Positions 3,230 to 36,467 of a stretch of DNA of 64,000 bases are shown one piece after another. Below the pieces are notes generated by a model. The model saw nothing but the letters and a program-made list of their open reading frames with translations. It was not told the DNA's origin and searched no databases. Position numbers and translations under genes: made by a program. Numbering within the stretch: position 1 is the stretch's first letter; the number at the start of each line of letters is the position of its first letter. The DNA is taken from the NCBI GenBank assembly GCA_947361615.1, contig CANAJP010000004.1, positions 8,216 to 72,215 on the forward strand. The letters are read 5' to 3'. The stretch is from an uncultured Candidatus Melainabacteria bacterium (GTDB lineage: Bacteria; Cyanobacteriota; Vampirovibrionia; Gastranaerophilales; Gastranaerophilaceae).

Positions 3230-3889
3230 TTAATATAAAATTTTTTCAAGCAGAACATCCTCTAACTCTTTTATGTTTTTACACGCGGCAATATGTTCTA
3301 CCCTCGCCAAATCTTGAATGCAGCTAAAACCAAATCCGTGGGTTAGTGCGATGAAATCAATTCCCGCTTCATTCGCGCCTCTTGCGTCTGCATTGCTGTC
3401 GCCAACCATGACACAAGATTTTTTGTCAGCATTAAGTTTTTTAATACATTCATTAATTATATCTGTTTTGGTAAGTTTTCCTTCCAGATCGCTTCCCATT
3501 GCGTAATCGCAAAAATCCAGAATCCCGAATTCCTTCAAAACAGCCATCGCATTGTCATGACTTTTATAAGTCGCAACTGCAATTTGGCGCCCCTGTTTTT
3601 TTAATTCTGCAAGCATTTCCAGTACGTTAGGGTATAAGGCTGCACGAAACATGGAATATTTTTTGTAATTTGCGCGGAACATGTTTGCATAATTCATTGC
3701 CGTTTCTTTATCCATATTAAAGTGATGGGCGAAAGAATCTTGTATCGGCGGGCCAATAAAAGTTTTTAGAATTTCGTACGATGGTGTTTCAATGCCTATT
3801 TCTTTTAACGTGATTTTTACTGCATCAATGATGCCGATTGTTGAATCAATTAATGTACCATCTAAATCAAAAATAACTGTTTTATACAT
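3230..3889 (-). CDS. HAD-superfamily phosphatase (phosphoglycolate-phosphatase-like, subfamily IA)
   Basis: DLDGTLIDS motif I and a GDSNADARGA motif IV region. Last gene of the glycan operon; overlaps the upstream gene by 8 nt. Confidence 0.8.
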   Translation of the reverse strand: MYKTVIFDLDGTLIDSTIGIIDAVKITLKEIGIETPSYEILKTFIGPPIQDSFAHHFNMDKETAMNYANMFRANYKKYSMFRAALYPNVLEMLAELKKQGRQIAVATYKSHDNAMAVLKEFGILDFCDYAMGSDLEGKLTKTDIINECIKKLNADKKSCVMVGDSNADARGANEAGIDFIALTHGFGFSCIQDLARVEHIAACKNIKELEDVLLEKILY

Positions 3890-5498
3890 GCAAAATTTCT
3901 CCGGATTTCTGATAATTTGATTTCGTTAAAAATTCAATCTGTATGTACTTTTGGAATTCCGCAAGCTGTTTGACAATTTCATTTGTAACTTCAACAACGT
4001 TTTCCTGTTGTTGGAAGAATTGATAGTTTTTGTCATAATAATTCTGAGTATACTTTGAAAATCCATCAAATCCCGCTAAAATTACTTTATTAACTTTTAA
4101 TTTTATCAGTGTTTTCATTAATAAGTATAATGAAGATTCGCCCATGATTGTATCTTTTGAAATTAAATTATTCCAGTTGAGAACAAAATCGGTGTTGTTC
4201 TCTTTGTCGGCAATGTTGCTTGTTATTATAACCTTACCGGAATTTTTAGTTTTTGTATAATAGTCAGTAAACTGGTCATATCGTTTTGCATTGCTGATAA
4301 ATATGTAATCTGTTGGAAAATTCGTATTAATATGGTTAACAGAGAATATTATCGGGTTGTGTTCATTAATATAATCTTTGATTTTATTATATTGAGTTTT
4401 GACTGACTTTCCAGGGCCGAGTAGCAAAATTGTAGAGTTTGCAATTTTTTTGCTTAATTGATCATAAGCTTTTTTATCATCAATATTATTTTGTTGGTGC
4501 TTCTGGTAAAGTTCTTCAATATAATCTTTGTCGAATGTCAGTTTTTTGTCTTCCTGTATATTACTTAAAATTTCATTGATTTCTTTGACCGGAAGCATAT
4601 TTTTCTTCTCAAGGTATGAAACATAATTCGGATGGCAGTCATTCAACGCTGAAATGTAGTATGAGAATTGATATCCCCAGCTATATTCTTTTAAAAATTT
4701 CAAAATTTCAAGTTCAATAGTGTTGAGGATTTCAGGCATATCATAATTTTTTGAATGGTTTGTATTTAGATACATTGCAAGTAGTTCGGTATTGCAATTT
4801 CCTGCAGATTTTCCCATACCATATAATGAACTATCAAGAATAATGCTTCTGTTTGTTTTGATATTCAATAATTCTATGGCATTAGAATATGCAAGCTGGA
4901 AGTTATTATGCGAATGATATCCGATTTCAATGTTTTCATTTAGGTTATTGTCAAGAAGATAGAAGTATCTAAATAGTCTATCTTTATGTAACAGCCCGTA
5001 AGTGTCTACCAGTGACATCGCAATAGGGTTTAAGTCATTTACCAAATCAATTAAATCAAGCATTTCTCTGTCAGAGTATGTGGTAATTGAAACAGGGTTT
5101 GTATAAACTTCATATCCCTTTTCTTTAAGTTGATGGCAGAATTGTATTGCATTATGCATGTCTTTTTTCTTAAAAATTACACGAATGCCGTCAAGAAAAG
5201 AATCTTTTTGGAGCGAAATATTGTCTATAGAACATGTTCCATAATCAATCATACCAACAACAGTGGTATTACCTTTAGTTTGGTTTTCGAGAATTTTATC
5301 AAATGTCTTGGTATCAGGATTTATTGTTCGGTTCATATCAAGCGAGCGTGAATCATTAATAAATCCGACTTCAATAATGTCAACATTTGATTTAATTAAT
5401 CTTCTAAAAATACTGCGAATAGAATTATACCCGAAATTCCAGTCATTAAGGAAACCGCCGTCGCGTAAAGTGCAGTCTAAAAGTCTAATTTTTCTCAT
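3882..5498 (-). CDS. fusion protein: N-terminal DRE-TIM (HMGL-like / 4-hydroxy-2-oxovalerate-aldolase-like) domain plus C-terminal DUF115/GT42-like nucleotide-sugar-transferase-like domain
   Basis: N-terminal motifs: LLDCTLRDGG, GYHSHNNFQLAYSNA, LDSSLYGMGKSAGNCNTEL (metal and substrate motifs of DRE-TIM metallolyases). C-terminal motifs (aa ~355-538): LLLGPGKS, DYIFISNAKRY, GESSLYLLMKTLIKLKVNKVILAGFDGF. These resemble the GNGPSL / SG..M / GiDFY pattern of Cst-type (GT42) and Maf/DUF115 proteins. Confidence 0.6.
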   Translation of the reverse strand: MRKIRLLDCTLRDGGFLNDWNFGYNSIRSIFRRLIKSNVDIIEVGFINDSRSLDMNRTINPDTKTFDKILENQTKGNTTVVGMIDYGTCSIDNISLQKDSFLDGIRVIFKKKDMHNAIQFCHQLKEKGYEVYTNPVSITTYSDREMLDLIDLVNDLNPIAMSLVDTYGLLHKDRLFRYFYLLDNNLNENIEIGYHSHNNFQLAYSNAIELLNIKTNRSIILDSSLYGMGKSAGNCNTELLAMYLNTNHSKNYDMPEILNTIELEILKFLKEYSWGYQFSYYISALNDCHPNYVSYLEKKNMLPVKEINEILSNIQEDKKLTFDKDYIEELYQKHQQNNIDDKKAYDQLSKKIANSTILLLGPGKSVKTQYNKIKDYINEHNPIIFSVNHINTNFPTDYIFISNAKRYDQFTDYYTKTKNSGKVIITSNIADKENNTDFVLNWNNLISKDTIMGESSLYLLMKTLIKLKVNKVILAGFDGFSKYTQNYYDKNYQFFQQQENVVEVTNEIVKQLAEFQKYIQIEFLTKSNYQKSGEILHV

Positions 5499-6160
5499 TA
5501 CTTGCCCTCTTGTCTTAGCTTTTTATACATAAATTCTGCGAATTCAAAGTCAACCATATCATCAATATCTATGGCTTCAACTTTGTCTACCGGATATAAA
5601 TAAGGGTTTTTTCCTACATAATGGCTTAATTCGATTAATCTGTCACGTTTTATAATATTAATCGCGAAATTTAAAGCCATAATATTTGGTAAATCTTGAC
5701 TTTTAGGTGTTTTGCTTAATTCATAATTTATAGGCTTTCCGTCGAGCCATAAGAATTCTTTAATATAATGAGCGGTATTTACCGAATCGTACTGTTTACA
5801 GTTGGCGAAATAGAAATCAATACATTTTTCGATTGTTGAATCTTCAATCATCGGGCTGGTAACGTTTGTGTACATAATTATATCGCTGTCACAATTTTCA
5901 GCAATATTTTTGTACATTTCGTTGGTGACGTTATCGCCTGCATAATATTCATCTCTTTTTACTGCTTGTACCCCCAGACTTCTAGCGATATCAAGCATTT
6001 CATCATCGTTTGAGTTTACAACAATACCGTCAAGATTTTTTAGGCGTTGTAATTGTTTTATTTTTATTGTGAGTAAATTGCTGTCTGCAAACGGTCTAAT
6101 ATTTTTATTGGCGACTCTTTTAGAACCTGAACGTACTGGTATTAAAGCTTTAATTATCAT
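5498..6160 (-). CDS. acylneuraminate-cytidylyltransferase-family CMP-sugar synthetase
   Basis: N-terminus [20 protein letters not shown] matches the CTP_transf_3 signature. 220 aa. 1-nt and 4-nt overlaps with the neighbouring genes. Confidence 0.8.
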
Positions 6161-8601
6161 ATTATTTCCTCTTTCTTTTTATCAAAATATCCTTTTTTAC
6201 TTGCAAAATGCTCTATTTCTTTATTTTGTGATAATAAAGGTCGCTGGTTTACATAATTTTGACATTTTTCATACAATATTTTTTTTAATTCAGTTTTGGA
6301 GTAAAGTTTTGCATCTACAGATAATAATTCATTAATTGGTGTTGTATATTCTGTAACCATTTTTTTAAATAATAAGTCAAGCCAGCGAAGATCCAGAGTT
6401 TCATCGTGTATTCTTTCTAGTAGTGATAGCGAAAAACCAGGAGTTTTTCTAAAATACATTTGATGCAATGAGGCAGAAGAAGAAAGCGAAACAATTGCGT
6501 CAACGTCAATATCATAACATTCCATAGGTAGAGTTGTATTTTCCATTATCACAACAGCAGGATTATCAATATATTTTCTCGGATCTCTCGGGTGTGGTTT
6601 GAAATATATTTTGTAACCTAATTCAATTAACTGTTCAATTAAACAGTTTTGTAAGCAAATATATTCATCTCTTGGTAATCCTGAAATTTCCCACCAAGAG
6701 CCGCAGAAGATGATAGTCTTTTTATCTTTTGTGATTTCTATATTTAACGGACAAAGCTTTTCGCAATCTTTTGCGACGTCAAGAAAGATTGCCTTATTTA
6801 GCGGAATTATTTTATTGAAATAATTTTTATCAAGTCCGAAAAAATCGAGTTTATCTAAATAATTATGCATTATTATTTTATCGACTTTACTGTAATCCAG
6901 ATCTGCCAGGCGTGCCATTTTACTGCCTACACCCTCGTCTGTTAAAATCCATTTGGCATTAGGGTATAATTCTTCTGAAAGAAAAATAAACTGGTATTGA
7001 TTGGAAAAGAATATTTCATCAAAGTCGTATAATTTATTTTCAATAAAGAATCGTCTAAAATCAGTAATCTTACCGTATAATGTGTATATTTCTTTGAAGT
7101 CGTGCAGACTTGCAATTTTCTTGCAGGCAGTATCAAACATCGGATTTTTCATATTCGAATATATGAATAATACGTCTTCGCAATTTGGTGTATTCAATTG
7201 CTTAATAATTGCAAGGTCGTTTACCAGAGAAATATTTCCGGTGGTTAAAAATAGTCTGCGTGTAATGTTTTTATTTTTTCTGTTTAAGTATTCATTATTA
7301 GCTTTTACAAAATTTTTGACATGTCTTTTTATACTAATTTTGCATTTGATTTTGATTCCAAAAATTTTAATTAGTTTATATTTATTATTTCCCCTATATT
7401 CATTACCAATGTATAATATTTTTTTAGGAAGTTTTTTTAAAAATGATATGCAATCGCGTTTTCGAGATATTTTAATTTTCATTCCTAAAATACTAAATGT
7501 TTTGTGATTATTGTCTGAATTTTTAACAGAAAATATTTTTTGGTAATGCATTGATATTTTCAAGCCTAAAAGTCTTAAAACCATTTTTGGCTTTCGATTT
7601 CTATAGATTTTAAGGCCGAATATATTATTCCCAAATGCCTTAAACGGAATATCAAGCTGTAAAATTCTGTAATATTGTTGTTTTTTTATAAAATTAATTT
7701 CCTCCCCCCAGTCATAATTTGAAGGTAAGGTGTTTACAAAATCAGATAGAAGTTTTTTTATATCATCTGTTAATTTTTCATTATAGGACAAATCAAATAA
7801 TATTGTGTTGAATAGTCTGCGAAAGATTAGTTGGTTGAATTCTTCAAGTTGATTTTGTTCTTTATAAAAATTTAAAGCTGTAAGCGTAGAGTTTATATGG
7901 GTAGTTAATAAAAATTGAAAGTCCTTGTTCAGAAAGCTCATTGCAGAACTATTACGAATGTTGTAATTGTATAAACATTTATCAATGAAGTATAAATATT
8001 TTACTTTAATCATGTACATTAAATTGAATAATACATCTTCAGATATTTTATAATTTTCGAATTTTAGCTTGAGGCCTTGAATTATAGAGGCTTTATACAG
8101 AAATGCCCATGGAGGTAAAAACATACGGGTTATTAGTTTAACGGATTTTTGTTGTAACCCTTTTGTAAATTTTGAATGCCAATTTTTTATTCTTATGTAA
8201 TCACGTTCCGGTAAGTTTTCATTAATATTATTGGGGAAAAAACATACCAGGTCGGTTTTTGGATTTGAAAAGTACGCGTCCACAGCCAATTCATAGCATT
8301 CAGGTTCAAGCCAGTCATCAGAGTCGACAAATGCAATATATTCACCTGTTGCTATGTCAAGTCCGTGGTTTCTTGCAGCTGAAACACCTGCATTCTCTTG
8401 ATTTATTACTATAATTCGTTCATCTTTTTTTGCATATTCTTCTAATATCGTGTGTGAATTATCTGGAGAACCATCATTAATACAAATTATTTCAAGGTTT
8501 TTATATGTTTGATTAATAACACTATCCAAACATTTTTCTAAATATTTTTCGACATTATATACTGGTATAATTACTGATATTTTGGGATTTAAATTTGTCA
8601 T
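6157..8601 (-). CDS. bifunctional glycosyltransferase: N-terminal GT2 domain, basic repeat linker, C-terminal sialyltransferase-motif (GT38/GT52-like) domain
   Basis: aa 8-100 carry [14 protein letters not shown]...INDGSPDNS...FVDSDD (GT2). The C-terminal half carries LTDEGVGS (aa 552-559), [12 protein letters not shown] (aa 665-676) and VSLSSSASL. By eye it is colinear with E. coli NeuS (LIEEGTGTY, IFIKPHPKEPKK, IGLTSSSL). Confidence 0.65.
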
Positions 8602-8613
8602 TTTTACCTCTTG

Positions 8614-9627
8614 CTATCTTAAAAAATTTTTTGCTTCCCTTATTTTTTCTTTACAAGCTGCTTTTTTATTTTTATAATGTTCTTTCTTTTTGCCTTGAGA
8701 TATTAAATATAGAAATTTATAACGCCAATATTTCAAAATATTTTCACGATATTTGAAAGTTATTTTTATTATTTCTGTATCATTCGGTGTTTTATTCAAT
8801 GGTAAATTTAGCACATCAGTGAATATTTTTTCATAAAATGGTGTTAATTTTGCATAATACCAAAAATATTCTCCATAACGTGAATTAAATGTTGTCCAGG
8901 GTTTTATTTTGTGGATGTAGTGCAAAATTTTATGGTTTGAAACCATTTGTTCCTTTTCTGCTTCATCTAAGACATTAAACCATTTTTCATAAACACAAGT
9001 TGCAGCATTCCAGCACCAATCAAGATATAAAACTTTATCTTTAAAAATAGCATTAAATAAATCCTGATCCGGGAATTTTAATTCCATTGTTGGTGCTAAT
9101 TCGATAGCTCTTTGTTCAAAGTTTATCTCTCTCCATTTATTGAGATTTGCATAAAACATTCCTGTATTGAAATATGGGTTTGTTTCAGGTGTACGGTGGC
9201 ATTTATACCATGCATCTTTTGCTGCAGCAATACAATAGTTGTCTATATTTATGCTCCAAAGCTCTGATAAATCACCGGTAACAATCATATCACCCTCTAG
9301 AATAATTGCGCGTTCTAGATTAGGAAAGAGCGACGAAATCATTAATTTCGCATAAACAATTTTAGAATCAATGTGAGTATTTACGCAGTAAGGAAGTTCA
9401 AAACTTAAACCTGCATTCAAGTATTTATATTCAATATCAAAATCGTAATGCCTTTTTAACATTTCTACTTTGTTAATTGTTTCTTGCCGAATATCTTCTG
9501 TCAAAATATGAAAGAATAGTTTATAATTTTTGTTAATATTTTCAAGCGCAGAAACGAGTAATACCGATACATACGGCATATATTTGTCAGAACTTGGAAT
9601 TATTATATCAATTATTTGCTGCTGCAT
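8614..9627 (-). CDS. GT8-family glycosyltransferase
   Basis: ILEGDMIVTGD (DxD region), NTGMFYANL and HYIHKIKPW motifs. Start set at the internal MQQQ, because the longer tracked ORF runs further into the upstream gene. Confidence 0.75.
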   Translation of the reverse strand: MQQQIIDIIIPSSDKYMPYVSVLLVSALENINKNYKLFFHILTEDIRQETINKVEMLKRHYDFDIEYKYLNAGLSFELPYCVNTHIDSKIVYAKLMISSLFPNLERAIILEGDMIVTGDLSELWSINIDNYCIAAAKDAWYKCHRTPETNPYFNTGMFYANLNKWREINFEQRAIELAPTMELKFPDQDLFNAIFKDKVLYLDWCWNAATCVYEKWFNVLDEAEKEQMVSNHKILHYIHKIKPWTTFNSRYGEYFWYYAKLTPFYEKIFTDVLNLPLNKTPNDTEIIKITFKYRENILKYWRYKFLYLISQGKKKEHYKNKKAACKEKIREAKNFLR

Positions 9628-10903
9628 ATTTTCCCTCTTTTTCAGCTGTATTTTTACCGTCCGCGAACGCCTGGTGAGTCCAAAAATATTCCCATTTCCC
9701 AAACCGTCCTATACTTTCTATTCCTATTGAGTTAAGATAATCAAGAATTATTTGACGGTTTTCATAGATATTGTGGTCAAAAATTATATTGGCATATTTT
9801 TCAAAACGAATATCTTTAATAATGATATCTTTTTCTTCACAAACGCCCATGTTAATTAGTTTTTCGATGGTATTTTTTATAACCTCATCGGCTGGTGGAA
9901 TTTTTGCCTTATTGGAAAAGAAAATTTCTGCTTGTAGAGAACTACATCCTTGAGGCACATTATCTGATGATTTTAGACTTGGAGAATAAACTCTGCTTGA
10001 CAAAATATCTTCATCATAGATATAAAACCAGAGATATTTTGCAATATCAGGTTTGTTAAACCCTAAGGAAACCATGTAACCGGAGGTATACATAAGATTT
10101 GCTGCCGCGGTTTTGATATTACTAGGAACATTGTCGAGCATTTTAATTATTTCAGGCAATGGCAAAGTAGAAATCAATCTTTCATATTTTGTTTCGCTTC
10201 CATCCTTGAAAAATACTTTACGGGAAGAGGTATCTATTTTAACAGCTTCTTTATTAAATTCTATATTTAACCCTTTGCGACATTTGTTTAAAATACTTCT
10301 AAATCCACCGGTTTTGGGGTATTTCATAACTTTTGAATAATAAAAACATTCGTCCTGAGTTTCAAATGCTCCGCGCAATACCTGTTTGATATCAGGGGTG
10401 TACATTCTTTGTCCGACCCATTTCGTTTCAAGTTCGCGTGCTTCTACTCCCCAGTATTTACGTGTATATTTAAACGGGAAATTCTCAGCAAAATAGTCAC
10501 CGTACTGCACTCTTAGCCATTCTTCATAGTTTTCGATTTCATCAATAGGTTTCATTTTTTTATTGATAAATCCGTCTATGATGTTAACTTTTTCTTCTAT
10601 AGAAAGTGGCGCAAGGTTATTCTGTGCGGGATGTCTTAGCCAGATGCCTTTGTAATAATTTGAAGGGAATGGAATGTGTTCCAACATTTCAGATGATTGC
10701 TTGAATAAGTTAACCGTATATTCATCCGGAGCAAAAGAAAAGTGGACAAATTTGTCAAAGCGAAAACCGTTTATTGTAAAATTTCCGCATAAACCACCCC
10801 AATCATTGTTTTTTTCATATATTATGACGGGTTCTTTTTCCAGATTTAAGTGATAGCCTGCTGATATACCTGCAATACCGCTTCCTAGAATTACTGTTCC
10901 CAT
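9608..10903 (-). CDS. FAD/NAD(P)-binding oxidoreductase (amine-oxidase / UDP-galactopyranose-mutase superfamily)
   Basis: N-terminal Rossmann motif VILGSGIAGISAGYHL...EKNNDWGGL. Lies inside the glycan operon. Confidence 0.65.
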   Translation of the reverse strand: MGTVILGSGIAGISAGYHLNLEKEPVIIYEKNNDWGGLCGNFTINGFRFDKFVHFSFAPDEYTVNLFKQSSEMLEHIPFPSNYYKGIWLRHPAQNNLAPLSIEEKVNIIDGFINKKMKPIDEIENYEEWLRVQYGDYFAENFPFKYTRKYWGVEARELETKWVGQRMYTPDIKQVLRGAFETQDECFYYSKVMKYPKTGGFRSILNKCRKGLNIEFNKEAVKIDTSSRKVFFKDGSETKYERLISTLPLPEIIKMLDNVPSNIKTAAANLMYTSGYMVSLGFNKPDIAKYLWFYIYDEDILSSRVYSPSLKSSDNVPQGCSSLQAEIFFSNKAKIPPADEVIKNTIEKLINMGVCEEKDIIIKDIRFEKYANIIFDHNIYENRQIILDYLNSIGIESIGRFGKWEYFWTHQAFADGKNTAEKEGKYAAANN

Positions 10904-11985
10904 AGGTACCCCTTATCTGTATGAGCTTTGATTTGTTTTTTGCAATATTCAAACATATCGTCTGAATTCAAAGCTTCTTTGTACCAATCAACGGTGAATT
11001 CGATTGCTTCGTGTAAATTCAGCATTGCTTTCCATTGCAACATTCTATAGGCTTTTGTCACGTCAAGGCTTAGAAGCGTATTTTCGTGAACCATTTCTGC
11101 TCCTGAAACGTCAACAACTTTACCTTTTCCGTAGTATTTAACAAGATATTCAACAACTTCCCAAACGGTTTTGTTGCACTCGATTGGTGGGCCGAAGTTA
11201 AAACCTTGAGCGTATTCCGTCGGGTTCTCCATTAATTTTTGTCCAACGCGCAGATAACCGCTCAATGGTTCAAGTACGTGTTCCCAAGGGCGAGTTGCTT
11301 TTGGTGAACGGATTTCAATATCTTTTCCTTCTTCGATAAATCTAATGCAATCAGGGATAAGTCTGTTATCAGACCAGTCGCCGCCACCGATTACGTTTCC
11401 GGCACGGACTGAGGCTATTGCTTTGCCGTGTTTAGCGTAATCTTTTGGGTTGAAATATGAATTTCTGTATGATGAAATCATTAATTCCGCACAGCCTTTT
11501 GATGAAGAATATGGGTCATAGCCGCCCATTCTGTCTGTTTCTTTGTATCCCCAGATTTGTTCTACGTTTTCATAGCATTTGTCAGATGTTATCATTACAA
11601 CTGTTTTTATGCAATCAAATTTTCTAACCGCTTCCAAAATATTCAATGAACCCATTACGTTGGTTTCATAAGTATATTTAGGGTTGTTGTATGCAGTTCT
11701 TACAAGAGCTTGTGCTGCAAGGTGGAAAATAATTTCAGGCTGATATTTTGCGATAGTTTCTTCTAATTTTGCGCTATCTCTAACGTCACCTTTAACATCA
11801 GCAAATAAATGTTTTTCAAGGTGTGAGGCTTTGTAGTTCCCGCGTTCAGAATATGGTTCAAGTGCATATCCGACAACTTTTGCGCCTAACATTGTAAGCC
11901 AGATTGAAAGCCAGCTTCCTTTGAAACCGGTATGTCCGGTTACTAGAACTGTTTTTCCGGCATAAACGTTATTGAAGTTTGACAT
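10891..11985 (-). CDS. rfbG: CDP-glucose 4,6-dehydratase
   Basis: GKTVLVTGHTGFKGSWLSIWL, YSSSK and other RfbG/DdhB hallmarks. Start set at MSNFNN. Confidence 0.88.
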   Translation of the reverse strand: MSNFNNVYAGKTVLVTGHTGFKGSWLSIWLTMLGAKVVGYALEPYSERGNYKASHLEKHLFADVKGDVRDSAKLEETIAKYQPEIIFHLAAQALVRTAYNNPKYTYETNVMGSLNILEAVRKFDCIKTVVMITSDKCYENVEQIWGYKETDRMGGYDPYSSSKGCAELMISSYRNSYFNPKDYAKHGKAIASVRAGNVIGGGDWSDNRLIPDCIRFIEEGKDIEIRSPKATRPWEHVLEPLSGYLRVGQKLMENPTEYAQGFNFGPPIECNKTVWEVVEYLVKYYGKGKVVDVSGAEMVHENTLLSLDVTKAYRMLQWKAMLNLHEAIEFTVDWYKEALNSDDMFEYCKKQIKAHTDKGYLWEQ

Positions 11986-12874
11986 TAGTCTTTTCCTTTC
12001 CTTGTGCAATTATTTCTTCTAAAGCTTGTTCTATTGTATATTTTTGTTGCCAGCCTATTTCATTCACAATACGCGAATTATTGCCAACTACAAATTTATA
12101 TTGGTTACTGACTTGTTCATTAAATATAACAAGATGTTCTTTATTCATTAGGCGTGCAATTGTTAGTACATAATCTGTAATGCTTGTTGCTTTGCCTGTT
12201 GAAATATTAAAAATTCCATTTTTATCTGAATCAAGAATCTCCACGAAAGCATTTGCGACATCTTTTGAATAGATATAATCTCTGATAAGACTTCCGCTAC
12301 GAATTTCTACAGGTTTATCGTTTTGTAGTGAATTCATAACATCACCTGTCAAGCGTCTTAAATCTTTTTCTAAGCCGAAAGCCGAGAAAATTCTACCCCA
12401 AGCAAAATCCATTTCATTATTCAAACAGAATAATTCAGCAATTTCCCTTAAAGTATTTTTGCATTTGCCGTAAATATGCTGTGGCTCAAGCGGGCTTGTA
12501 TATTCCTTAAGCAAGGCATTGTTTTCTGCATATTCAATATATGTACCTGCCATAACAACTTTTTTACCGCCATGTTGTTTGAACGATTTCAGTAATTCAA
12601 TTGAGGCTATTAAGAAATCAAAATTTATATTGTCATTAAACATACCAGTAGTCTGCCACGCCAGATGTAGTAAATGCGTAGGTTTTATTTCCGCTAGAAT
12701 GCTGTTTATTGCTTTGTGATCAAACAAGTTTCCCTGAATCCAGTGGATTTGAGTAGATGAGGGTAGATTTCCGGTAGTAAGTGCATAAACTTCATATCCT
12801 TTACTTAATAACGGTTGTAAAGTTTCTTTGCCTATAAGTCCTTTTGCACCGGTTACAAAAACTTTTTTAGTCAT
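11969..12874 (-). CDS. NAD-dependent sugar epimerase/reductase (extended SDR)
   Basis: VFVTGAKGLIGK Rossmann motif and a YGKCK catalytic YxxxK. Confidence 0.8.
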   Translation of the reverse strand: MTKKVFVTGAKGLIGKETLQPLLSKGYEVYALTTGNLPSSTQIHWIQGNLFDHKAINSILAEIKPTHLLHLAWQTTGMFNDNINFDFLIASIELLKSFKQHGGKKVVMAGTYIEYAENNALLKEYTSPLEPQHIYGKCKNTLREIAELFCLNNEMDFAWGRIFSAFGLEKDLRRLTGDVMNSLQNDKPVEIRSGSLIRDYIYSKDVANAFVEILDSDKNGIFNISTGKATSITDYVLTIARLMNKEHLVIFNEQVSNQYKFVVGNNSRIVNEIGWQQKYTIEQALEEIIAQGKEKTNVKLQ

Positions 12875-13775
12875 TAATATGCTCCTTCCACCAGTTTACG
12901 CACTGCGATAAACCTTCTTCAAGAGAGTATTTTGGTTTCCAGTGTAATTCATTTAAAAGTTTTGTATTGGAACCGATAGCTACAGGTTCTTCAAATGCAC
13001 TCGGGATAGCTCCGTACAAAATTTCGCCTTTAAAATCAGTAAGTTCTTTTATCTTTTCGACGATGTTTTTTAACTTTACAGGTTCGCCTGAACAAATATT
13101 TACTGCACCATTTATATCACTTTCAAAAAGTTTAATGATTGCATCTGAAACATCTTCAACGTGAAGATAATCTTGAAATTTTGTACAGGTGGAAACTTTT
13201 ACGTCTTCATTTTTAAGCATTGAAGTTATGACATACGGCATTAGACGTTGCGGTCTTTCATATTGGCCGTAAAGATTGAAAATCCTTGCCCATTTAAAGT
13301 CTATTCCGTTTTGTTCACAGTAGCTTTGTGCCAAATTAAACAATGCGGCTTTTGATTTGCCATACAAGGATTTATTATTCAATGGTGTCAAATCTTCTTT
13401 GAAATAACCATATTCAAAATCGTATTCCGAGATACTTCCTGCTATTAACACTTTTTTCCCACCGTTTTCGTGAAAACATTTAAGTATATTTAAGGAGGCT
13501 GCAACCCAATCAATGTTGATATTGTGTGTATGGCATTTTGCATCACCATACCAGGCGAGATGAATTAAGTCTTCAAATTTGTTTTTATCGAATAATTTCT
13601 TAACTTGATTAACGTCCAACAAATCGAGAGTTATGGTGGTAAGGTTTTTGTGTTTGAAATCAATTTCATTTTGATATTTAATCCCTACAACTTCATAACC
13701 TCTTTCAATTAAGTCTTTAACCGTTTGTTTACCTATAAATCCTGAAGCTCCTGTGATTAGGACTTTTTTGTTCAT
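12867..13775 (-). CDS. NAD-dependent sugar epimerase/reductase (extended SDR), paralog of the previous gene
   Basis: VLITGASGFIGK and YGKSK motifs. Confidence 0.8.
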   Translation of the reverse strand: MNKKVLITGASGFIGKQTVKDLIERGYEVVGIKYQNEIDFKHKNLTTITLDLLDVNQVKKLFDKNKFEDLIHLAWYGDAKCHTHNINIDWVAASLNILKCFHENGGKKVLIAGSISEYDFEYGYFKEDLTPLNNKSLYGKSKAALFNLAQSYCEQNGIDFKWARIFNLYGQYERPQRLMPYVITSMLKNEDVKVSTCTKFQDYLHVEDVSDAIIKLFESDINGAVNICSGEPVKLKNIVEKIKELTDFKGEILYGAIPSAFEEPVAIGSNTKLLNELHWKPKYSLEEGLSQCVNWWKEHIND

Positions 13776-13776
13776 C

Positions 13777-14595
13777 TTAGACCTTTCCCATTAGACTTAC
13801 AAAATTATTTTGTTTATCCCAGACTTTCCAAGGGGCGTTATCATTTGCCCACATTTCGTCAAGTTCTATTTTATCGCGCAAAGTATCCATCGGGCGCCAG
13901 AAGCCATCGTGCTTATATGCAACTAATTCCCCGGCGTTTGCAATGCTTTCAAGTGGTTTTCTTTCGAATATTTCGTTCGGGTTATTGGCTTCAATGAAGT
14001 TGAAAACTTCCGGTTCACAGACGAAAAATCCACCGTTAATCCAGTTACCATCACCTTTTGGCTTTTCTCTGAATGACGTAATCATATTATCAGGTGTTAT
14101 GTTTAATGCTCCAAATCTTCCTGATGGTTGCACTGAAGTCATTGTCATTAGTTTGCCTGATTTTTTGTGGAAATCAACAAGTTCTGAAATATTGACATCA
14201 GATACTCCGTCGCCGTAAGTCAACAAGAAAGGTTCGTTACCTACGTAATCCTGTGCTTTTTTTATGCGTCCGCCAGTCATTGTATCCTGACCTGTGTAAA
14301 GCATTGTCACGCGCCACGGTTCGGTACGCATTTTGTGGAGTTCAACACTATTAGTTCTCATATCCACAGTTATGTCTGAATATCTTTGATAATAGTGCAC
14401 AAAGTAATCCTTGATGATATGAGATTTGTAACCTGTGAGGATTACAAAATCATTGAAGCCGTAATGAGAATAGATTTTCATTATGTGCCAAATTATCGGG
14501 TAGCCACCAATTTCCACCATTGGTTTTGGTTTCGAAACGGTTTCTTCGCCTAATCTTGTTCCGAGACCACCCGCAAGAATCAAAACTTTCATCAA
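13777..14595 (-). CDS. rfbF: glucose-1-phosphate cytidylyltransferase
   Basis: MKVLILAGGLGTRLGEETVSKPKPMVEIGGYPIIWHIMKIY is near-canonical RfbF/DdhA. First gene of the operon. Confidence 0.92.
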   Translation of the reverse strand: MMKVLILAGGLGTRLGEETVSKPKPMVEIGGYPIIWHIMKIYSHYGFNDFVILTGYKSHIIKDYFVHYYQRYSDITVDMRTNSVELHKMRTEPWRVTMLYTGQDTMTGGRIKKAQDYVGNEPFLLTYGDGVSDVNISELVDFHKKSGKLMTMTSVQPSGRFGALNITPDNMITSFREKPKGDGNWINGGFFVCEPEVFNFIEANNPNEIFERKPLESIANAGELVAYKHDGFWRPMDTLRDKIELDEMWANDNAPWKVWDKQNNFVSLMGKV

Positions 14596-14696: not shown

Positions 14697-15239
14697 CTAT
14701 AAAATGAAGTTCATATAACTTTCGTCTATTTTATCCTGTTCAATACCAATGTAACGCAGTGTTATTGATGTTGAGGAGTGGTTAAGGATTTTTTGTAAAA
14801 GTGCTATATCGTTGAACTTTATATAATGATGATATCCGAAGGTTTTTCTTAAAGAGTGTGTTCCTACTTTGTATTCAATGCCAAGTTCTGCGCAGACGTT
14901 ATTTATAATTCTGTAGGCCTGGTGTCGATCGAGTCGGTTGTCGTAAACTGTTTTAAACAATGGTTCTTTATTTTTACGGTTTTTGGTGTGAATTTCTATA
15001 AGTTTTTGAAGCTTTTCGTTTATTGGGAATTTTTTGTATTTTTTGGTTTTTTTCTCAATAATTGTTATATGGGTTTTATCTTTGACGTCACCGACATTAA
15101 GATTGAGAATGTCTGAGATTCTGAGGCCGCTGTTTGTGCCCATTACAAAAAATAATAAATCTCTTAAACTTTGATTGGCGAGTGCAGTTTCGATTTTTTT
15201 TAAATCATCTTTGTTTCTGATTGGTTCTACGATGTTCAT
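14697..15239 (-). CDS. small (180 aa) catalytic-domain-only tyrosine recombinase, FimB/FimE-sized
   Basis: GLRISDIL (Arg I), HSLRKTFGYHHY (H-x-x-R) and LNHSSTSITLRYI (His...Tyr nucleophile). Confidence 0.85.
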   Translation of the reverse strand: MNIVEPIRNKDDLKKIETALANQSLRDLLFFVMGTNSGLRISDILNLNVGDVKDKTHITIIEKKTKKYKKFPINEKLQKLIEIHTKNRKNKEPLFKTVYDNRLDRHQAYRIINNVCAELGIEYKVGTHSLRKTFGYHHYIKFNDIALLQKILNHSSTSITLRYIGIEQDKIDESYMNFIL

Positions 15240-15348
15240 AAGTCCTCCTTTATTATTGGCTTATGTTAAATTGTAGATGTAAAATGGGTTCTGGTTAATA
15301 TTTAGGGAAGATTTAAGTTGTAAGTGCTTGAATAGAAAGGAGGTTATT

Positions 15349-15900
15349 ATGGTGAGAAAATATGTGGCTCAACCAATTAAAGACAAAAAGGATATTCAAA
15401 CTGTAGAACAATATCTGAAAGAACGTAATTATAGGGATTATGTTATTTGGGTGCTGGGCCTGAATTCAGGATTGCGTGTGTCAGATATCATCGGGTTAAA
15501 TGTTTCTGATGTTACAAATAAAACACATATTTCAATTATAGAAAAAAAGACATCTAAACAGAAAAATTTTTATATCAATGATAAATTAAAAAGAGTTCTG
15601 GAAGATTTTACCAGAGGAAGAGTGCTTGAAGAACCGCTATTTATTGGAAAACAAGGCCGTCGATTAGATCGTTCTCAGGTCTATCGTTTTATTAAAAAAG
15701 CTTGTGATGATAATGGAATAAAAACTCATGTTTCAACACATACGATGCGAAAATCTTTTGGTTATCATCATTATCAAAAGTTTAAAGATTCAATAATCCT
15801 GCAAAAAATTTTTAATCACAGTAGCCAGAGAATAACTCTAATGTATATAGGTATAGAACAAGATGAAATTGATTTGAGCTATAAAAATTTTGAATTATAG
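15349..15900 (+). CDS. small (183 aa) tyrosine recombinase, paralog of 14697-15239, divergently transcribed
   Basis: AGGAGG RBS before the ATG at 15349. Motifs GLRVSDII, HTMRKSFGYHHY and FNHSSQRITLMYI. Confidence 0.85.
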   Translation: MVRKYVAQPIKDKKDIQTVEQYLKERNYRDYVIWVLGLNSGLRVSDIIGLNVSDVTNKTHISIIEKKTSKQKNFYINDKLKRVLEDFTRGRVLEEPLFIGKQGRRLDRSQVYRFIKKACDDNGIKTHVSTHTMRKSFGYHHYQKFKDSIILQKIFNHSSQRITLMYIGIEQDEIDLSYKNFEL

Positions 15901-15919
15901 ATAAGTCGTTGCTCCACTT

Positions 15920-16099
15920 TGTATCATTTTGTATCATTTTGATACACGAAGCAATATATCAACGAATATATGTTAAAAAAAGGCTATTGTCAATTTGAAT
16001 AGCCTGCATTTTGTAACAAATTTAAGAATTTTCCCATCTATTCTTCTGTCAAAACTCTTTTGTATCAATTGTTTTCAACGTTTGCCCCAAAATGATACA
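15920..16099. promoter_or_regulatory. candidate invertible DNA switch carrying an outward-facing promoter
   Basis: The 12-bp motif TGTATCATTTTG is present twice in tandem (15920-15931, 15930-15941). It is present once inverted as CAAAATGATACA (16088-16099). Between the copies, on the minus strand, lies TTGACA (15993-15988), 17 nt, then TATATT (15970-15965). Confidence 0.5.
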
Positions 16100-16133
16100 G
16101 AATGGGGCAAAGTGAAGTAGAGGATTTGAATTT

Positions 16134-17096
16134 ATGCCAGAAGTTAGTAATGAAGTTAATATCGCAATGATATTAGACGATGCTTATTTGATGTGTTCAC
16201 TTTGTACTATTTATTCCTTGAAAAAGAACAAGAAGAAAAACTCGGTTTATAATTTATTCCTTTTTCTCAATGATGTTAGTCTGTCTGCTAAAAGATTGTT
16301 GAATAAACTGAGTTCATATAATTTCAATGTTATGATGATTGATGCAAGCGTAGAAAGATTCAAAAATGTTTCCCGTATTGTTCATATAACCCAGACTGCA
16401 CTTATTAAATTTAATTTGTCAGGTTTGTTGTCGAATTTAGATAAAGTTTTATATATAGATGGGGATATTATTGTTCAGAAAGATTTAACTGATTTGTATA
16501 ATATGGATGTTTCGGATTATTATTTGGCGGGTGTAAGGGAATTGCGAGCTGAGAAAAAGTACAAGTTTCATAAATTAGTGGGGCAGAAATATTATATAAA
16601 TTCCGGTGTTATGTTGATGAATCTTGATTTGTTAAGAAAAGACAACCTTGAACAAGTTTTTATTGACACCAAGCTAAATCAGCCCAAAGAGTGGAAATGT
16701 ATGGATCAAGATGTATTTAATTATGTTTGTGGCGCAAAAATAAAGTATCTGGGAGTTGAGTATAATAATCCCTGTATAATATTTGTTGATTCTGGAACAA
16801 CCATAGATGAAATAAATAGTTTTTATAATACAAAATATAAAACAATAAAGGATTTATGTAAGAATTCTTATATATTGCACTATGCTGGCCCGCCGAAGCC
16901 GTGGTTATATGAAATACCTTACCATTCGAAATTATATTCTCGTTATTTGTTAAATTGTAAAGTTCCTTTGTATGAGAAACCGCCTTGGTTTACCAAAATT
17001 TTTTCTGTTTCGAACTTAGAGAGTAAAACTCATACTGTTATAAAAATATTAGATATCAGAATAAAAATAAGGAGAAGAAATAGTGTCAAAGGTTAG
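16134..17096 (+). CDS. GT8-family glycosyltransferase
   Basis: YIDGDIIVQKD (DxD), NSGVMLMNL and HYAGPPKPW motifs. C-terminal basic motif KIFSVSNLESKTHTVIKILDIRIKIRRR. Confidence 0.8.
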   Translation: MPEVSNEVNIAMILDDAYLMCSLCTIYSLKKNKKKNSVYNLFLFLNDVSLSAKRLLNKLSSYNFNVMMIDASVERFKNVSRIVHITQTALIKFNLSGLLSNLDKVLYIDGDIIVQKDLTDLYNMDVSDYYLAGVRELRAEKKYKFHKLVGQKYYINSGVMLMNLDLLRKDNLEQVFIDTKLNQPKEWKCMDQDVFNYVCGAKIKYLGVEYNNPCIIFVDSGTTIDEINSFYNTKYKTIKDLCKNSYILHYAGPPKPWLYEIPYHSKLYSRYLLNCKVPLYEKPPWFTKIFSVSNLESKTHTVIKILDIRIKIRRRNSVKG

Positions 17097-18282
17097 TGTA
17101 ATTATACCTGTTTATAATGCTGAAAGATATTTGAGAGAATGTCTGGACAGTTTAATTAATCAAACATTATCTGATATAGAAATTATATGTGTTAATGATG
17201 GTTCTACAGATAATTCATTAAGTATTTTAAATGATTATTCTCAGAAAGATGACAGAATAAAAATTCTTAACCAGGAAAATCAGGGGCCTGCTGTTGCTAG
17301 AAATAATGCATTAAAGATATCTAGCAGTGAATTTATTATGTTTTGTGATAGTGATGATTTTTATTCTCCTGATATGTGTGAGGTAATGTATAAAACTATT
17401 ACTCAGCAAGATTTAGATATTGTGCAAGTCGCATCAAATGTTATTTCAGGTTATGATGAGCATATTCGCAATGTTGAAAATTTTAAAAAATATTTATCTT
17501 TTAATAAACGTGAAAATATTGATTTGAATAAGACTCAAAATAAGTTATATTTTACGAATGAAATTTGGAACAAAATTTTCAGAAATGATTTGATTGAGAA
17601 ATATAATATAACTTTTCCTTTGCAAAAATGTGGCGAAGATAGATGTTTTATAATGCAATACATTGCGATAAGTAGCAGAGGTTCTATTATTGATAAAAAG
17701 TTACATAATTATAGATTATTTGCAGGAACTTTGAGTGAGCAATTTGAGCATGATTATTCTTTATGTTTTTCATCTCCTAAAGGGTTAAATATTGTTTTGA
17801 AATTTTATAAAGAGAATAATATCTTTGAAAATAATGAGGAATATTTTGTAAATAAAGTTTGTTTTTCGTTGAAAAAATATTATGGAAAAATTCCTTTTGA
17901 ATTGCAAAAATTATATATTAGAGAACATATACGATTGTTTGAAAACCTCGAAATAAAAAAAGAGGTTTTGAATAGGTATAAATTAGCAAAATATTTATGG
18001 CGTTGTGATGTTCGAAACGTTAAAAATATATTGAATAATAAAATGGTATACACGTATCAAGAGAGAATTTTTTCGATCAAAAATGCCAGTATTCACAAGG
18101 TGGTGACAATTTTAGGGTTAAAGTTTAAATTTAGATCAGGAAAGCTTGTTGAACGTGAAAGATTTAGAAGCCTTGAAAATAAATTAAATTACGCAAATCG
18201 ATTATTGCTTGAACAAAAAAATATTCTTATGCAACACGAAGAATTATTGAACGAACTTGTCTGGCAAAATGGAAAAACTTAA
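17083..18282 (+). CDS. GT2-family glycosyltransferase
   Basis: [25 protein letters not shown]...VNDGSTDNS...FCDSDD motifs. C-terminal motif ERIFSIKNASIHKVVTILGLKFKF followed by a coiled-coil tail. GTG start overlapping the upstream gene. Confidence 0.85.
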   Translation: MSKVSVIIPVYNAERYLRECLDSLINQTLSDIEIICVNDGSTDNSLSILNDYSQKDDRIKILNQENQGPAVARNNALKISSSEFIMFCDSDDFYSPDMCEVMYKTITQQDLDIVQVASNVISGYDEHIRNVENFKKYLSFNKRENIDLNKTQNKLYFTNEIWNKIFRNDLIEKYNITFPLQKCGEDRCFIMQYIAISSRGSIIDKKLHNYRLFAGTLSEQFEHDYSLCFSSPKGLNIVLKFYKENNIFENNEEYFVNKVCFSLKKYYGKIPFELQKLYIREHIRLFENLEIKKEVLNRYKLAKYLWRCDVRNVKNILNNKMVYTYQERIFSIKNASIHKVVTILGLKFKFRSGKLVERERFRSLENKLNYANRLLLEQKNILMQHEELLNELVWQNGKT

Positions 18283-19610: not shown

Positions 19611-20295
19611 GAATGTTTATTTTTTGTTGCTTTAATTGCTTGAAGCGTTTTTGGAAACTAAAGATTTCATCCAGAGTTTCGAATGATTTCATTATATTGC
19701 CCTTGCCGTCAATTATGCATCTTATAGAATCTTCGCAAGGTGAATCTGGTTTTACATATACATAACTATTCCCTTTGTTTTGCATAATAACTTCAATAGT
19801 GCGTTTCTTTTGTTCATCCCTTATGCGCGTAGCTTCTGCGGTCGAATTAATTTGGGGCGCTTCAATATTTAGCCTTAACGCATTAGAAATTTTTTCAACT
19901 TCCTTTTGGGCTTTAGGAGTTTTAGATTTTTTGCGAGGGCTTTTTTGTTGTGCGGCAGTGGTGCATATTTCTTTTATATCGGTTATGACTTTTGTTGCTT
20001 TGTCGTGGATTAATTTTATTAAATCTTCAGGTTTTTCGCTGTCTAAGCCGGATTTCGTGTTGATTTGTGGGAAATATTCGATACCGGAAACATTGTTTTC
20101 TTCGATATATTTACCGATTCTTTTGTCATAATTATTTCTAATGACAATAACTTGGTCGCCTTTTTCTAAGATGTCATTGAAAACTTGTTTGCCTTGGGTA
20201 AATAGGGTCGGGATTTCGTTTTTAGCCTTGATTTCGTTGGGTTTTATTCTGAATGCACCTTCAAAATTAGGGCTTGGTATATTTGATATCAACAT
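19597..20295 (-). CDS. hypothetical protein (232 aa)
   Basis: Long ORF convergent with ugd. I recognise no motif. Confidence 0.5.
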   Translation of the reverse strand: MLISNIPSPNFEGAFRIKPNEIKAKNEIPTLFTQGKQVFNDILEKGDQVIVIRNNYDKRIGKYIEENNVSGIEYFPQINTKSGLDSEKPEDLIKLIHDKATKVITDIKEICTTAAQQKSPRKKSKTPKAQKEVEKISNALRLNIEAPQINSTAEATRIRDEQKKRTIEVIMQNKGNSYVYVKPDSPCEDSIRCIIDGKGNIMKSFETLDEIFSFQKRFKQLKQQKINILTDK

Positions 20296-20392: not shown

Positions 20393-20557
20393 TTATGAAA
20401 AATTATATTGAGTTGTTATTTCGCCATTAGGTAATTCAAAAATTATTTTCCCATTTATACAATAAACATTTGGAATACCATTTTTATGGTTATTCTCTTG
20501 AGCTTTTTTAATAGCTCTATTACCTAGTTTTAATAATTTTTCAGATAATTTTGTCAT
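20393..20557 (-). CDS. 54-aa protein translationally coupled to the zeta-like ATPase gene (possible antitoxin)
   Basis: Not in the ORF track (<60 aa). Hand translation: MTKLSEKLLKLGNRAIKKAQENNHKNGIPNVYCINGKIIFELPNGEITTQYNFS. Its ATG shares one base with the upstream TAA (TAATG). Confidence 0.55.
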   Translation of the reverse strand: MTKLSEKLLKLGNRAIKKAQENNHKNGIPNVYCINGKIIFELPNGEITTQYNFS

Positions 20558-23916: not shown

Positions 23917-24011
23917 AAATTCTCTCCTTTATTAAATAACCAATCATATTTTATTATATAAGTACTTAAATGTAAATAGAACTAGCAATTTTTTTGATTC
24001 AGTTGTTTTAT

Positions 24012-36395: not shown

Positions 36396-36467
36396 AATGA
36401 AATTATACAACAAGCGCGGTGTATAATCAAATAAATTTCGGCAAATTTTTCTTTTACTGTTTTTATT

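Follow-up and report, generated by a model that had tools for sequence, protein, structure and literature searches.

Can a bacterium supply a 3-deoxy-2-ulosonic acid for its surface glycans without a synthase of the NeuB or KdsA type? The question is raised by four adjacent minus-strand genes in a 64,000-nucleotide stretch of DNA (contig CANAJP010000004.1, positions 8,216 to 72,215; hereafter the window) from an uncultured Candidatus Melainabacteria bacterium. They encode, in the order of transcription, an 814-residue protein that combines glycosyltransferase (GT) domains of the GT2 and GT38-like types, a cytidylyltransferase of family PF02348 (CTP_transf_3), a 538-residue two-domain protein which, together with its homologues, is here named FUS, and a phosphatase of the haloacid dehalogenase (HAD) superfamily (Table 1). 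A sequence-only reading of this DNA had picked out the four overlapping genes, and the open reading frames (ORFs) are exactly as it described them. It had further proposed that an aldolase provides an ulosonic acid that is then activated with cytidine monophosphate (CMP) and transferred. We assign a probability of about 0.5 to a version of that route, in which pyruvate and a phosphorylated aldose would give a 3-deoxy-2-ulosonate phosphate that is dephosphorylated, CMP-activated and transferred, independently of KdsA and NeuB.

The steps would be as follows. The metal-dependent DRE-TIM domain of FUS would condense pyruvate with a phosphorylated aldose from central metabolism, a pentose 5-phosphate or hexose 6-phosphate yielding an 8- or 9-carbon acid phosphate, respectively. 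The HAD enzyme would strip the terminal phosphate and so pull the reversible aldol reaction forward. Judging by its family, the PF02348 enzyme would form the CMP-sugar and the GT38-like domain, predicted to have the GT-B fold, would transfer it. The GT2 domain, together with a GT8 enzyme and genes for a cytidine diphosphate (CDP)-linked 6-deoxyhexose encoded upstream, would add other sugars of a surface glycan, whether lipooligosaccharide, lipopolysaccharide or capsule-like. The logic of such a pathway is known from 3-deoxy-D-manno-octulosonate (Kdo) and 3-deoxy-D-glycero-D-galacto-nonulosonic acid (Kdn); what would be new, on our hypothesis, is that the first and second enzymes are non-homologous to those already described. 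In the order of transcription, successive genes of the module overlap by 4, 1 and 8 nucleotides, the HAD gene starting 8 nucleotides inside the end of the FUS gene, and this compact, translationally coupled operon supports the proposed scheme.

To our knowledge all characterised members of PF02348 activate free 2-ulosonic acids, and we know of none that activates a non-sugar acid. The window enzyme matches the family at E 1e-16 (61.6 bits, the cut-off being 22.6), in keeping with its earlier description as a CTP_transf_3-type synthetase. Residues predicted to bind CTP (Arg10, Gly12, Ser13, Arg15, Lys19, Asn20, Gln155 and Asp156) are conserved in 20 orthologues. Among NCBIfam models PseF scores highest, its 67.9 bits falling short of the cut-off of 205.7, and KdsB models score 35 bits or less. 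The best match in the PDB is PpNeuA (9T4Z, E 4e-11), followed by synthetases for CMP-N-acetylneuraminic acid (CMP-Neu5Ac). PpNeuA is a Kdn-specific CMP synthetase (PMC12934254).

The 814-residue protein begins with a clear GT2 domain, for which the closest PDB match is GalT1 (5hea, E 1e-38). Its C-terminal half, which had been read by eye as sialyltransferase-like, matches the polysialyltransferase family A-2_8-polyST (PF07388) at 37.2 bits against a curated cut-off of 23.3, covering profile positions 2 to 313 of 316, and 17 of 24 homologues carry a precomputed PF07388 annotation. An AlphaFold2 model of residues 380-814, with a predicted local distance difference test (pLDDT) score of 88.7, retrieves the Mannheimia haemolytica polysialyltransferase (5wcn and 5wc6) as the first and second Foldseek matches at E 1e-8, with template-modelling (TM) scores of only 0.44-0.53; GT52 and GT80 sialyltransferases are also among the matches. 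The motifs that the sequence-only reading had pointed to are located at residues 553-560 (LTDEGVGS), 667-674 (FKPHPRDP) and 705-711 (SLSSSAS). The HPR triplet (670-672) is invariant in 24 homologues and the HP motif aligns with that of the GT80 enzyme 3s44, while the glutamate of the DEG triplet (555-557) is nearly invariant. The GT38 polysialyltransferases NeuS and SiaD share PF07388, the GT-B fold and the D/E-D/E-G and HP motifs with this domain, although identity to 5WCN is only about 16-17% and the TM score is about 0.5. The architecture recalls the capsule polymerases of Neisseria meningitidis serogroups W and Y, in which a hexosyltransferase domain is fused to a sialyltransferase-like domain, but here the fusion partner is GT2 and not GT4. 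We propose that the GT38-like domain is a CMP-ulosonate transferase. No neuB, neuC or neuA gene was found among the scanned window ORFs, and CMP-Neu5Ac is therefore unlikely to be the donor.

In the segment that links GT2 to the GT38-like domain, a motif of two hydrophobic residues followed by G-[ILM]-K-I occurs four times. By eye, a similar motif starts many stand-alone PF07388 homologues as well as the c15, c34 and c88 proteins of related operons. The c34 and c88 neighbours were considered as possible polysialyltransferase-like proteins, hhalign giving E 1e-3 or weaker; one c34 representative has no Pfam match and one c88 representative has no NCBIfam match.

The N-terminal domain of FUS is a DRE-TIM metallolyase domain of the HMGL-like family (E 2e-20, 73.7 bits against a cut-off of 29), and that half of the fusion stands as first described, with the motifs CTLRDGG, HSHNN and GKSAGN at residues 9-15, 195-199 and 229-234. 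When a profile of 57 FUS homologues was compared with the PDB, the best solved relative, with 136 bits, was 3DXI, which comes from structural genomics and is named "putative aldolase". Scores for 4-hydroxy-2-oxovalerate aldolases were 50-63 bits, as against 41 or less for isopropylmalate, homocitrate and citramalate synthases. NCBIfam models agree, with 84 and 67.5 bits for aldolase models and no more than 40 for synthase models, so that the domain scores nearer to the aldolases than to enzymes of the isopropylmalate or homocitrate synthase type. The characterised proteins closest to it are DmpG and BphI, with which it has in common RDG and GxGN motifs and a metal site of Asp/His/His; the invariant ligands Asp13, His195 and His197 of FUS align with Asp18, His200 and His202 of DmpG. 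Unlike FUS, which occurs in a biosynthetic glycan context, DmpG and BphI serve aromatic catabolism. Neither a match to the DmpG communication domain in FUS nor a DmpF-type acetaldehyde dehydrogenase partner in any annotated FUS context was found. Source annotations vary, from "aldolase catalytic domain-containing protein" and "4-hydroxy 2-oxovalerate aldolase" to "isopropylmalate/homocitrate/citramalate synthase" and "hypothetical protein". We propose that the domain is a pyruvate-dependent ulosonate-phosphate synthase.

The phosphatase, likewise as originally assigned, matches HAD_2 (PF13419) at E 1e-35 and 123.8 bits. It is of the C1-capped HAD-IA type and carries the catalytic motifs FDLDGT (DxDxT, residues 7-12) and GDSNAD (GDxxxD, residues 163-168); by a tblastn search with Escherichia coli KdsC, it is not KdsC-like.

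Are the canonical synthases present after all? Within the loci, the level to which the searches extend, the claim that they are missing holds. Pfam matches to NeuB (PF03102), KdsA/DAHP_synth_1 (PF00793) or NeuC/Epimerase_2 (PF02350) were not found among 42 window ORFs, 40 of them of at least 150 residues, a scan that left aside six further ORFs of that length and all others that are shorter. Searches by tblastn with E. coli KdsA and KdsC returned nothing from the window or any compared locus, about 1.6 Mb in total. The NeuB, DAHP_synth_1 and Epimerase_2 families do not recur among 102 neighbour representatives from 32 PF02348-bearing loci, nor are NeuB, KdsA or NeuC families present in the Pfam-annotated contexts of related loci; for NeuB this rests on Pfam annotation only, no NeuB sequence having been used as a query.

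The FUS family is large: with one genome taken per species, a pattern scan gave at least 599 matched stretches, at least 569 of which encode a FUS relative. To examine gene context, ORFs from 88 loci and from the first 26 kb of the window were clustered, and 83 unique FUS genes were classed by their neighbours within 8 kb. A PF02348 gene and a HAD gene accompany 24 of them, and the same pair with a thiamine-diphosphate (TPP) enzyme resembling acetolactate synthase (ALS) and YerE accompanies eight more. HAD and TPP enzymes occur with 15. In 19 the TPP enzyme is joined by a cyclizing phospholyase related to AroB (TIGR04425, 441 bits) and, for the majority of these, by a FabG-like short-chain dehydrogenase/reductase (SDR). 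Nine have the TPP enzyme only and eight have other neighbours.

The order cytidylyltransferase, FUS, HAD recurs in metagenome-assembled genomes (MAGs) labelled Fusobacterium, Gastranaerophilales or Melainabacteria, Clostridia and Bacillales (Firmicutes), and the clade to which the window FUS belongs also includes members from MAGs labelled Gastranaerophilales/Melainabacteria and Fusobacterium. The same gene order in many distant MAGs is not chance juxtaposition, and the triad of PF02348 gene, FUS and HAD is conserved. Carriers of the cassette include Clostridium transplantifaecale Marseille-P8228 (L027) and genomes labelled Robinsoniella (L022 and L025). A minimal cassette, in locus L091, consists of genes for an MptE-like protein, a Methyltransf_21 protein, a hexapeptide acetyltransferase, CTP_transf_3, FUS and HAD, and in such cassettes FUS is the sole candidate source of a 2-oxo sugar acid.

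The HAD cluster represented in the window lies within 8 kb of 50 of the 83 FUS genes and directly adjoins 41, a tight coupling which suggests that the FUS product is phosphorylated. As partners of FUS, HAD (50 loci) and the AroB-like enzyme (19 loci) exclude each other. The paradigm substrate of AroB is 3-deoxy-D-arabino-heptulosonate 7-phosphate (DAHP), a 3-deoxy-ulosonate phosphate, and the mutual exclusion fits an ulosonate phosphate resembling DAHP as what FUS makes. PF02348 synthetases and AroB-like enzymes take 2-oxo acids or 3-deoxy-2-ulosonates. With the ALS/YerE-like TPP enzymes, three kinds of FUS neighbour use acids of this type, and the pattern is consistent with FUS making such an acid in all contexts.

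Characterised members of the GT38 and Maf/DUF115 families use CMP-activated ulosonic acids. Sialyltransferase-like transferases, either DUF115-like or PF07388, lie within 8 kb of FUS in 22 of 35 loci with a PF02348 gene and in none of 48 without (Fisher p 2e-11, the loci not being phylogenetically independent). The nearest genome locus, L009, from a MAG labelled "Fusobacterium sp.", is instructive here. Its FUS is 92% identical to that of the window and the DNA is about 80% identical across the module and recJ, yet the gene at 7261-9348 encodes a 695-residue protein in which the same GT2 domain and linker are followed by a DUF115/Maf-like C-terminus (hidden Markov model (HMM) E 1e-99) instead of the GT38-like domain. 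This is a natural swap of two sialyltransferase-type modules at one operon position. Maf/DUF115 enzymes use CMP-Neu5Ac and CMP-Kdo (bioRxiv 10.1101/2020.06.03.131540; PMC11339370).

The synthetase slot varies in a similar way. L012 has a collinear operon whose KdsB-like synthetase is only 20% identical to that of the window, and a related member of the KdsB-like cluster, from L031, passes an NCBIfam KdsB subfamily cut-off (203.5 against 193). Positions equivalent to Arg196 and Tyr183 of PpNeuA, in the pocket for C5 of the sugar, were examined as a guide to sugar identity and found uninformative since they vary among orthologues.

Which aldose might be used? Four Gastranaerophilales operons (L010, L013, L016 and L018) have in common, in this order, a fusion of a nucleotidyltransferase (NTP-transferase) and an aminoglycoside phosphotransferase (APH)-type kinase, in most cases a HAD-like protein of about 125 residues, and then either a KdsD-like protein or proteins resembling phosphomannose isomerase (PMI) and Rpe. 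Several proteins of about 350-400 residues without a family follow, then a DUF115-like protein, cytidylyltransferase, FUS and HAD, the gene after HAD in L013 and L018 being for an ABC exporter. The KdsD homologue, 46% identical to E. coli KdsD, is in L013, and L010, L016 and L018 hold the Rpe-like and PMI-like genes in that slot. This gives a weak hint of a pentose 5-phosphate such as arabinose 5-phosphate, leading to a Kdo-like octulosonate; it is weak because the slot genes could serve a separate nucleoside diphosphate (NDP)-sugar route and because the window synthetase looks more like a nonulosonate enzyme. As proof of a hexose 6-phosphate substrate the PMI-like and Rpe-like genes were set aside as ambiguous: in Lachnospiraceae loci the PMI adjoins a GDP-mannose pyrophosphorylase, and in Gastranaerophilales the NTP-transferase/kinase fusion and the small HAD could form the separate NDP-sugar route.

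Two known pathways provide the closest parallels. In that for Kdo (KdsD-KdsA-KdsC-KdsB, and KpsF/KpsU of the E. coli group 2 capsule) an aldose phosphate and a C3 unit likewise give an ulosonate phosphate, with a phosphatase and then a PF02348 synthetase acting next, and the KdsB-like synthetases of sister operons and the KdsD homologue of L013 add to the resemblance. The window differs in having neither the phosphoenolpyruvate (PEP)-dependent KdsA nor a KdsC-type HAD, the candidate synthase being a DRE-TIM enzyme that would use pyruvate, and in a synthetase nearer to NeuA and PseF than to KdsB. The Kdn and Neu5Ac 9-phosphate pathways of Bacteroides thetaiotaomicron and Prymnesium, and NANS-NANP-CMAS of animals, also run through synthase, phosphatase and CMP-synthetase (PMC12934254, PMC6200933), but their synthases are PEP-dependent members of the NeuB family, of which none was found in the scanned window ORFs. 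Full-text searches of the literature found no description of the present cassette, nor any report pairing DRE-TIM, HMGL-like, DmpG or BphI enzymes with nonulosonic or octulosonic acids.

The second domain of FUS presents a separate problem. It had been described as Cst/Maf-like, and this applies at most at the level of fold or remote profile. PF01973 gives no match to the window protein and matches just two of 57 homologues (best E 3.9e-5), and an HMM built from DUF115-like neighbours matches no FUS. With an AlphaFold2 model of residues 300-538 (pLDDT 87.5) Foldseek finds SteA, an MptE-like protein (E 5e-5), human ST8SiaIII (E 5e-4) and CstII with probabilities of 0.97-1.0, although TM scores are only 0.37-0.46. 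Comparison with the DUF115-like neighbours (c15) by hhalign gives E 2e-4 and 45% probability over 159 columns, pairing GPGxS with GxGPS and AGFDG with VG(C/N)D. Gly363, Asn388, Asn403, Arg406, Asn428 and Asp478 are invariant. The domain, which has a GxGxS-type first-strand motif, may share the fold class of Maf/DUF115 and of the GT42 enzyme CstII, and genuine DUF115-like proteins are encoded beside the triad or, in L009, fused to GT2; it differs in falling below PF01973 and in occurring in loci without a CMP-synthetase. The resemblance of its GPGKS to the GMGKS of KdsD led us to consider a sugar isomerase (SIS)-type sugar-phosphate isomerase, an idea rejected when hhalign against the SIS domain of E. 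coli KdsD gave a probability of 0.5%.

A phmmer search with this domain alone gave 704 matches among 50%-identity representatives (1.84 billion scanned), nearly all of them either at residues of about 335-530 in proteins of about 530 residues or in shorter proteins, possibly fragments. The domain is therefore essentially specific to the FUS architecture. Its conservation is equal in FUS genes away from any cytidylyltransferase (48 of the 83), which makes a role as CMP-sugar transferase unlikely. The earlier suggestion that the fused transferases install the sugar is therefore unlikely to hold for FUS, whose C-terminal domain is probably not the transferase. The domain probably binds a nucleotide or phosphate ligand in a regulatory or auxiliary capacity.

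Several observations weigh against the proposed synthase. The catalytic base of DmpG (His21) and BphI (His20) is replaced by Phe16 in the window FUS and by tyrosine in the family consensus. The aldolase models favoured by FUS are matched far below their cut-offs (TIGR03217, 67.5 bits against 286; NF006049, 84 against 229). The variable C5 pocket of the synthetase gives no help with sugar identity, and the proposed pathway does not account for a C-terminal domain that is always fused. The ALS/YerE-like TPP enzyme lies beside 52 of the 83 FUS genes, in many cases accompanied by RfbH and CDP-glucose genes but not by PF02348. As most sampled FUS genes are thus in TPP, AroB-like or RfbH contexts, the chemistry of the family may be broader or different, acting on nucleotide sugars or making other 2-oxo acids. 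The window operon itself encodes a route to a CDP-4-keto-6-deoxyhexose, a possible alternative acceptor. Lastly, a conventional Kdo supply is conceivable for this genome: a Porin_O_P match in one window ORF points to a probably diderm host, which should then have KdsA elsewhere. The aldolase route of the sequence-only reading is accordingly upheld in part, by the triad, the exclusive association with sialyltransferase-like proteins the GT38/Maf and NeuA/KdsB swaps and the higher scores with aldolases than with Claisen synthases, and weakened by the missing histidine and the other FUS contexts.

Those other contexts show likeness to the YerE/YerF pathway for yersiniose and to AroB/DAHP chemistry in their RfbH, ALS/YerE-like TPP enzymes, SDRs and TIGR04425 proteins, partners that are absent from the window; example features are at 6421-8235 of L066, 12281-13345 of L057 and 3863-5224 of L026. 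Such cassettes may represent a route, so far undescribed, by which higher sugars of branched or carbocyclic type are made. A search of plasmids for FUS gave distant relatives only. One, on NZ_CP090010.1 of Desulfobaculum bizertense (8001-9426 of L090), is apparently split, possibly by a frameshift, and the Prokaryotic Genome Annotation Pipeline labels its N-terminal part "hypothetical protein" and its C-terminal part "glycosyltransferase".

A broader idea, which we hold tentatively and consider somewhat doubtful, is that FUS forms a third family of 3-deoxy-2-ulosonate or ulosonate-phosphate synthases, of the DRE-TIM type, dependent on pyruvate and metal and non-homologous to NeuB or to KdsA/DAHP synthase. 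Its product would feed HAD and PF02348 enzymes for new CMP-acidic sugars transferred by GT38-like or Maf-like enzymes, as in the window, an AroB-like cyclase for carbocyclic units, or a YerE-like TPP enzyme for higher branched sugars. On this idea gut anaerobes would have a range of surface sugars not yet described, and surveys based on neuB and kdsA would miss part of ulosonic-acid biosynthesis.

The main rival to the synthase reading, in our judgement unlikely, has FUS adding pyruvate to a keto-sugar bound to a nucleotide. With a cytidine nucleotide held by the C-terminal domain, the DRE-TIM domain would attach a C3 unit from pyruvate to the carbonyl of, for example, CDP-4-keto-6-deoxyglucose, giving a branched or chain-extended higher sugar, and the PF02348 and HAD enzymes would have separate roles. 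Sugars with pyruvate-type C-branches exist, shewanellose being an example. The predicted fold of the C-terminal domain matches CMP-binding sialyltransferases, the window operon encodes the route to CDP-4-keto-6-deoxyglucose, and 25 of the 48 FUS loci without PF02348 have glucose-1-phosphate cytidylyltransferase, CDP-glucose 4,6-dehydratase or RfbH, usually with the YerE-like TPP enzyme; the Desulfobaculum plasmid homologue lies between rfbH, a split transketolase gene and glycosyltransferase genes. What argues against it is that CDP-sugar genes are absent within 8 kb in 30 of the 35 PF02348-type loci, making that cassette independent of the CDP pathway, and that in cassettes like L091 the PF02348 enzyme is the only source of a nucleotide sugar. 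A source of the free acid taken by PF02348 enzymes would still be needed, and the tight coupling of FUS to HAD is not accounted for.

We also think it improbable that a conventional synthase encoded elsewhere, KdsA or a distant NeuB, makes the acid, the part of FUS and HAD being only to provide or recycle a precursor or to modify the acid, with FUS as a lyase, an epimerising aldolase or an aldose-making enzyme. E. coli kps loci do encode KpsF and KpsU alone, with KdsA and KdsC borrowed, L013 has its KdsD/KpsF-like gene, and the host, of whose genome just 64 kb is visible, is probably diderm. Set against this, MAGs bearing the labels Clostridia, Lachnospiraceae and Bacillales, in which Kdo biosynthesis is not expected, also have the triad, the approximately 1.6 Mb of flanking sequence yielded no KdsA, KdsC or NeuB, and the directly adjoining phosphatase genes suggest a phosphorylated FUS product.

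A Claisen condensation with acetyl-CoA of the citramalate or homocitrate type, or a 2-oxo-acid lyase or decarboxylase reaction, giving a non-carbohydrate hydroxy-acid substituent of the glycan, is very unlikely. In its favour, isopropylmalate, homocitrate and citramalate synthases are also matched (E 1e-9 to 1e-6), the aldolase histidine is missing and TPP enzymes, users of 2-oxo acids, are the commonest FUS neighbours. Against it, the aldolase models outscore the Claisen-synthase models by about 20-45 bits, the partners are a PF02348 synthetase and sialyltransferase-like transferases and there are no CoA-related genes in FUS contexts. A phosphonate pathway, combining an HMGL-like phosphonomethylmalate synthase with a cytidylyltransferase, the sole pairing of this kind that the literature searches brought up, was rejected as no PEP mutase or phosphonopyruvate decarboxylase occurs in any Pfam-annotated context.

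Why would a pyruvate-dependent route matter? Sialic-acid-like and Kdo-like sugars influence how bacteria are recognised by the immune system, how susceptible they are to phages and how they mimic the host, and genome surveys for them use neuB and kdsA as markers, which the proposed route would escape. If it is real, then many gut and environmental bacteria, Gram-positives and Melainabacteria included, display acidic ulosonic sugars that nobody has sought, and the enzymes could be useful biocatalysts because they would use pyruvate instead of PEP. Independently of the route, the analysis flags a large uncharacterised two-domain family for which a structure, 3DXI, exists without an assigned function.

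The four-gene module is the 3′ end of a longer minus-strand operon reaching position 14595 (Table 1). The genes upstream of the module, whose order is also kept in L012 and L093, probably serve to make another sugar of that glycan, a CDP-6-deoxyhexose. The whole operon (3230-14595) recurs in L012, from a MAG labelled Gastranaerophilales, at 65-75% nucleotide identity, and in L093, and the adjoining genes differ in both. The G+C content of the module is 28-31% compared with 38-40% for most of the remaining window. The low G+C content and the occurrence of one operon between different flanks suggest a horizontally mobile glycan cassette.

Table 1. Position of genes, domains and other features in the window.
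Feature	Position	Strand	Details
HAD-IA phosphatase	3230-3889	minus	219 aa
FUS, fusion of DRE-TIM and putative DUF115/sialyltransferase-fold domains	3882-5498	minus	538 aa
FUS C-terminal domain, Rossmann-like, putative DUF115/MptE/sialyltransferase-like fold	3885-4496	minus	residues 335-538
FUS N-terminal domain, DRE-TIM metallolyase (HMGL-like)	4722-5492	minus	residues 3-259, PF00682
PF02348 cytidylyltransferase	5498-6160	minus	220 aa
GT2::GT38-like protein	6157-8601	minus	814 aa
GT38-like domain (polysialyltransferase fold, GT-B)	6430-7254	minus	residues 450-724, PF07388
GT2-GT38 linker with repeated motif	7348-7623		residues 327-418
GT2 domain	8092-8577	minus	residues 9-170, PF00535 (Glycos_transf_2) E 5e-43
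GT8	8614-9702	minus	Pfam/NCBIfam
Flavin amine-oxidase/mutase-like protein	9608-10903	minus	Pfam/NCBIfam
CDP-glucose 4,6-dehydratase	10891-12009	minus	TIGR02622, 482 bits, above cut-off
SDR epimerase/reductase 1	11969-12874	minus	Pfam/NCBIfam
SDR epimerase/reductase 2	12867-13775	minus	Pfam/NCBIfam
Glucose-1-phosphate cytidylyltransferase	13777-14595	minus	TIGR02623, 394 bits, above cut-off
Phage_integrase-family gene	14697-15239	minus	180 aa
Phage_integrase-family gene	15328-15900	plus	190 aa
Inverted repeat, arms	15912-15941 / 16088-16117		30 nt, 83% complementary
GT8	16134-17096	plus	plus-strand glycan operon
GT2	17083-18282	plus	plus-strand glycan operon
UDP-glucose dehydrogenase	18294-19610	plus	plus-strand glycan operon
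Zeta-toxin-like gene	20557-21126
ORFs without a Pfam match	19597-20295, 22326-23303, 23994-25406, 28165-29622, 35247-36500, 36468-38423, 44732-45442, 54327-55367

Between the minus-strand operon and a plus-strand glycan operon lie two short, divergent genes of the Phage_integrase family; the pair is also present in L009 and one integrase in L093. The inverted repeat flanks 146 bp just upstream of the plus-strand GT8 gene, and this could be an invertible, phase-variable promoter. Elsewhere in the window there is a zeta-toxin-like gene, and for eight ORFs of considerable size Pfam gave no match at the thresholds applied.

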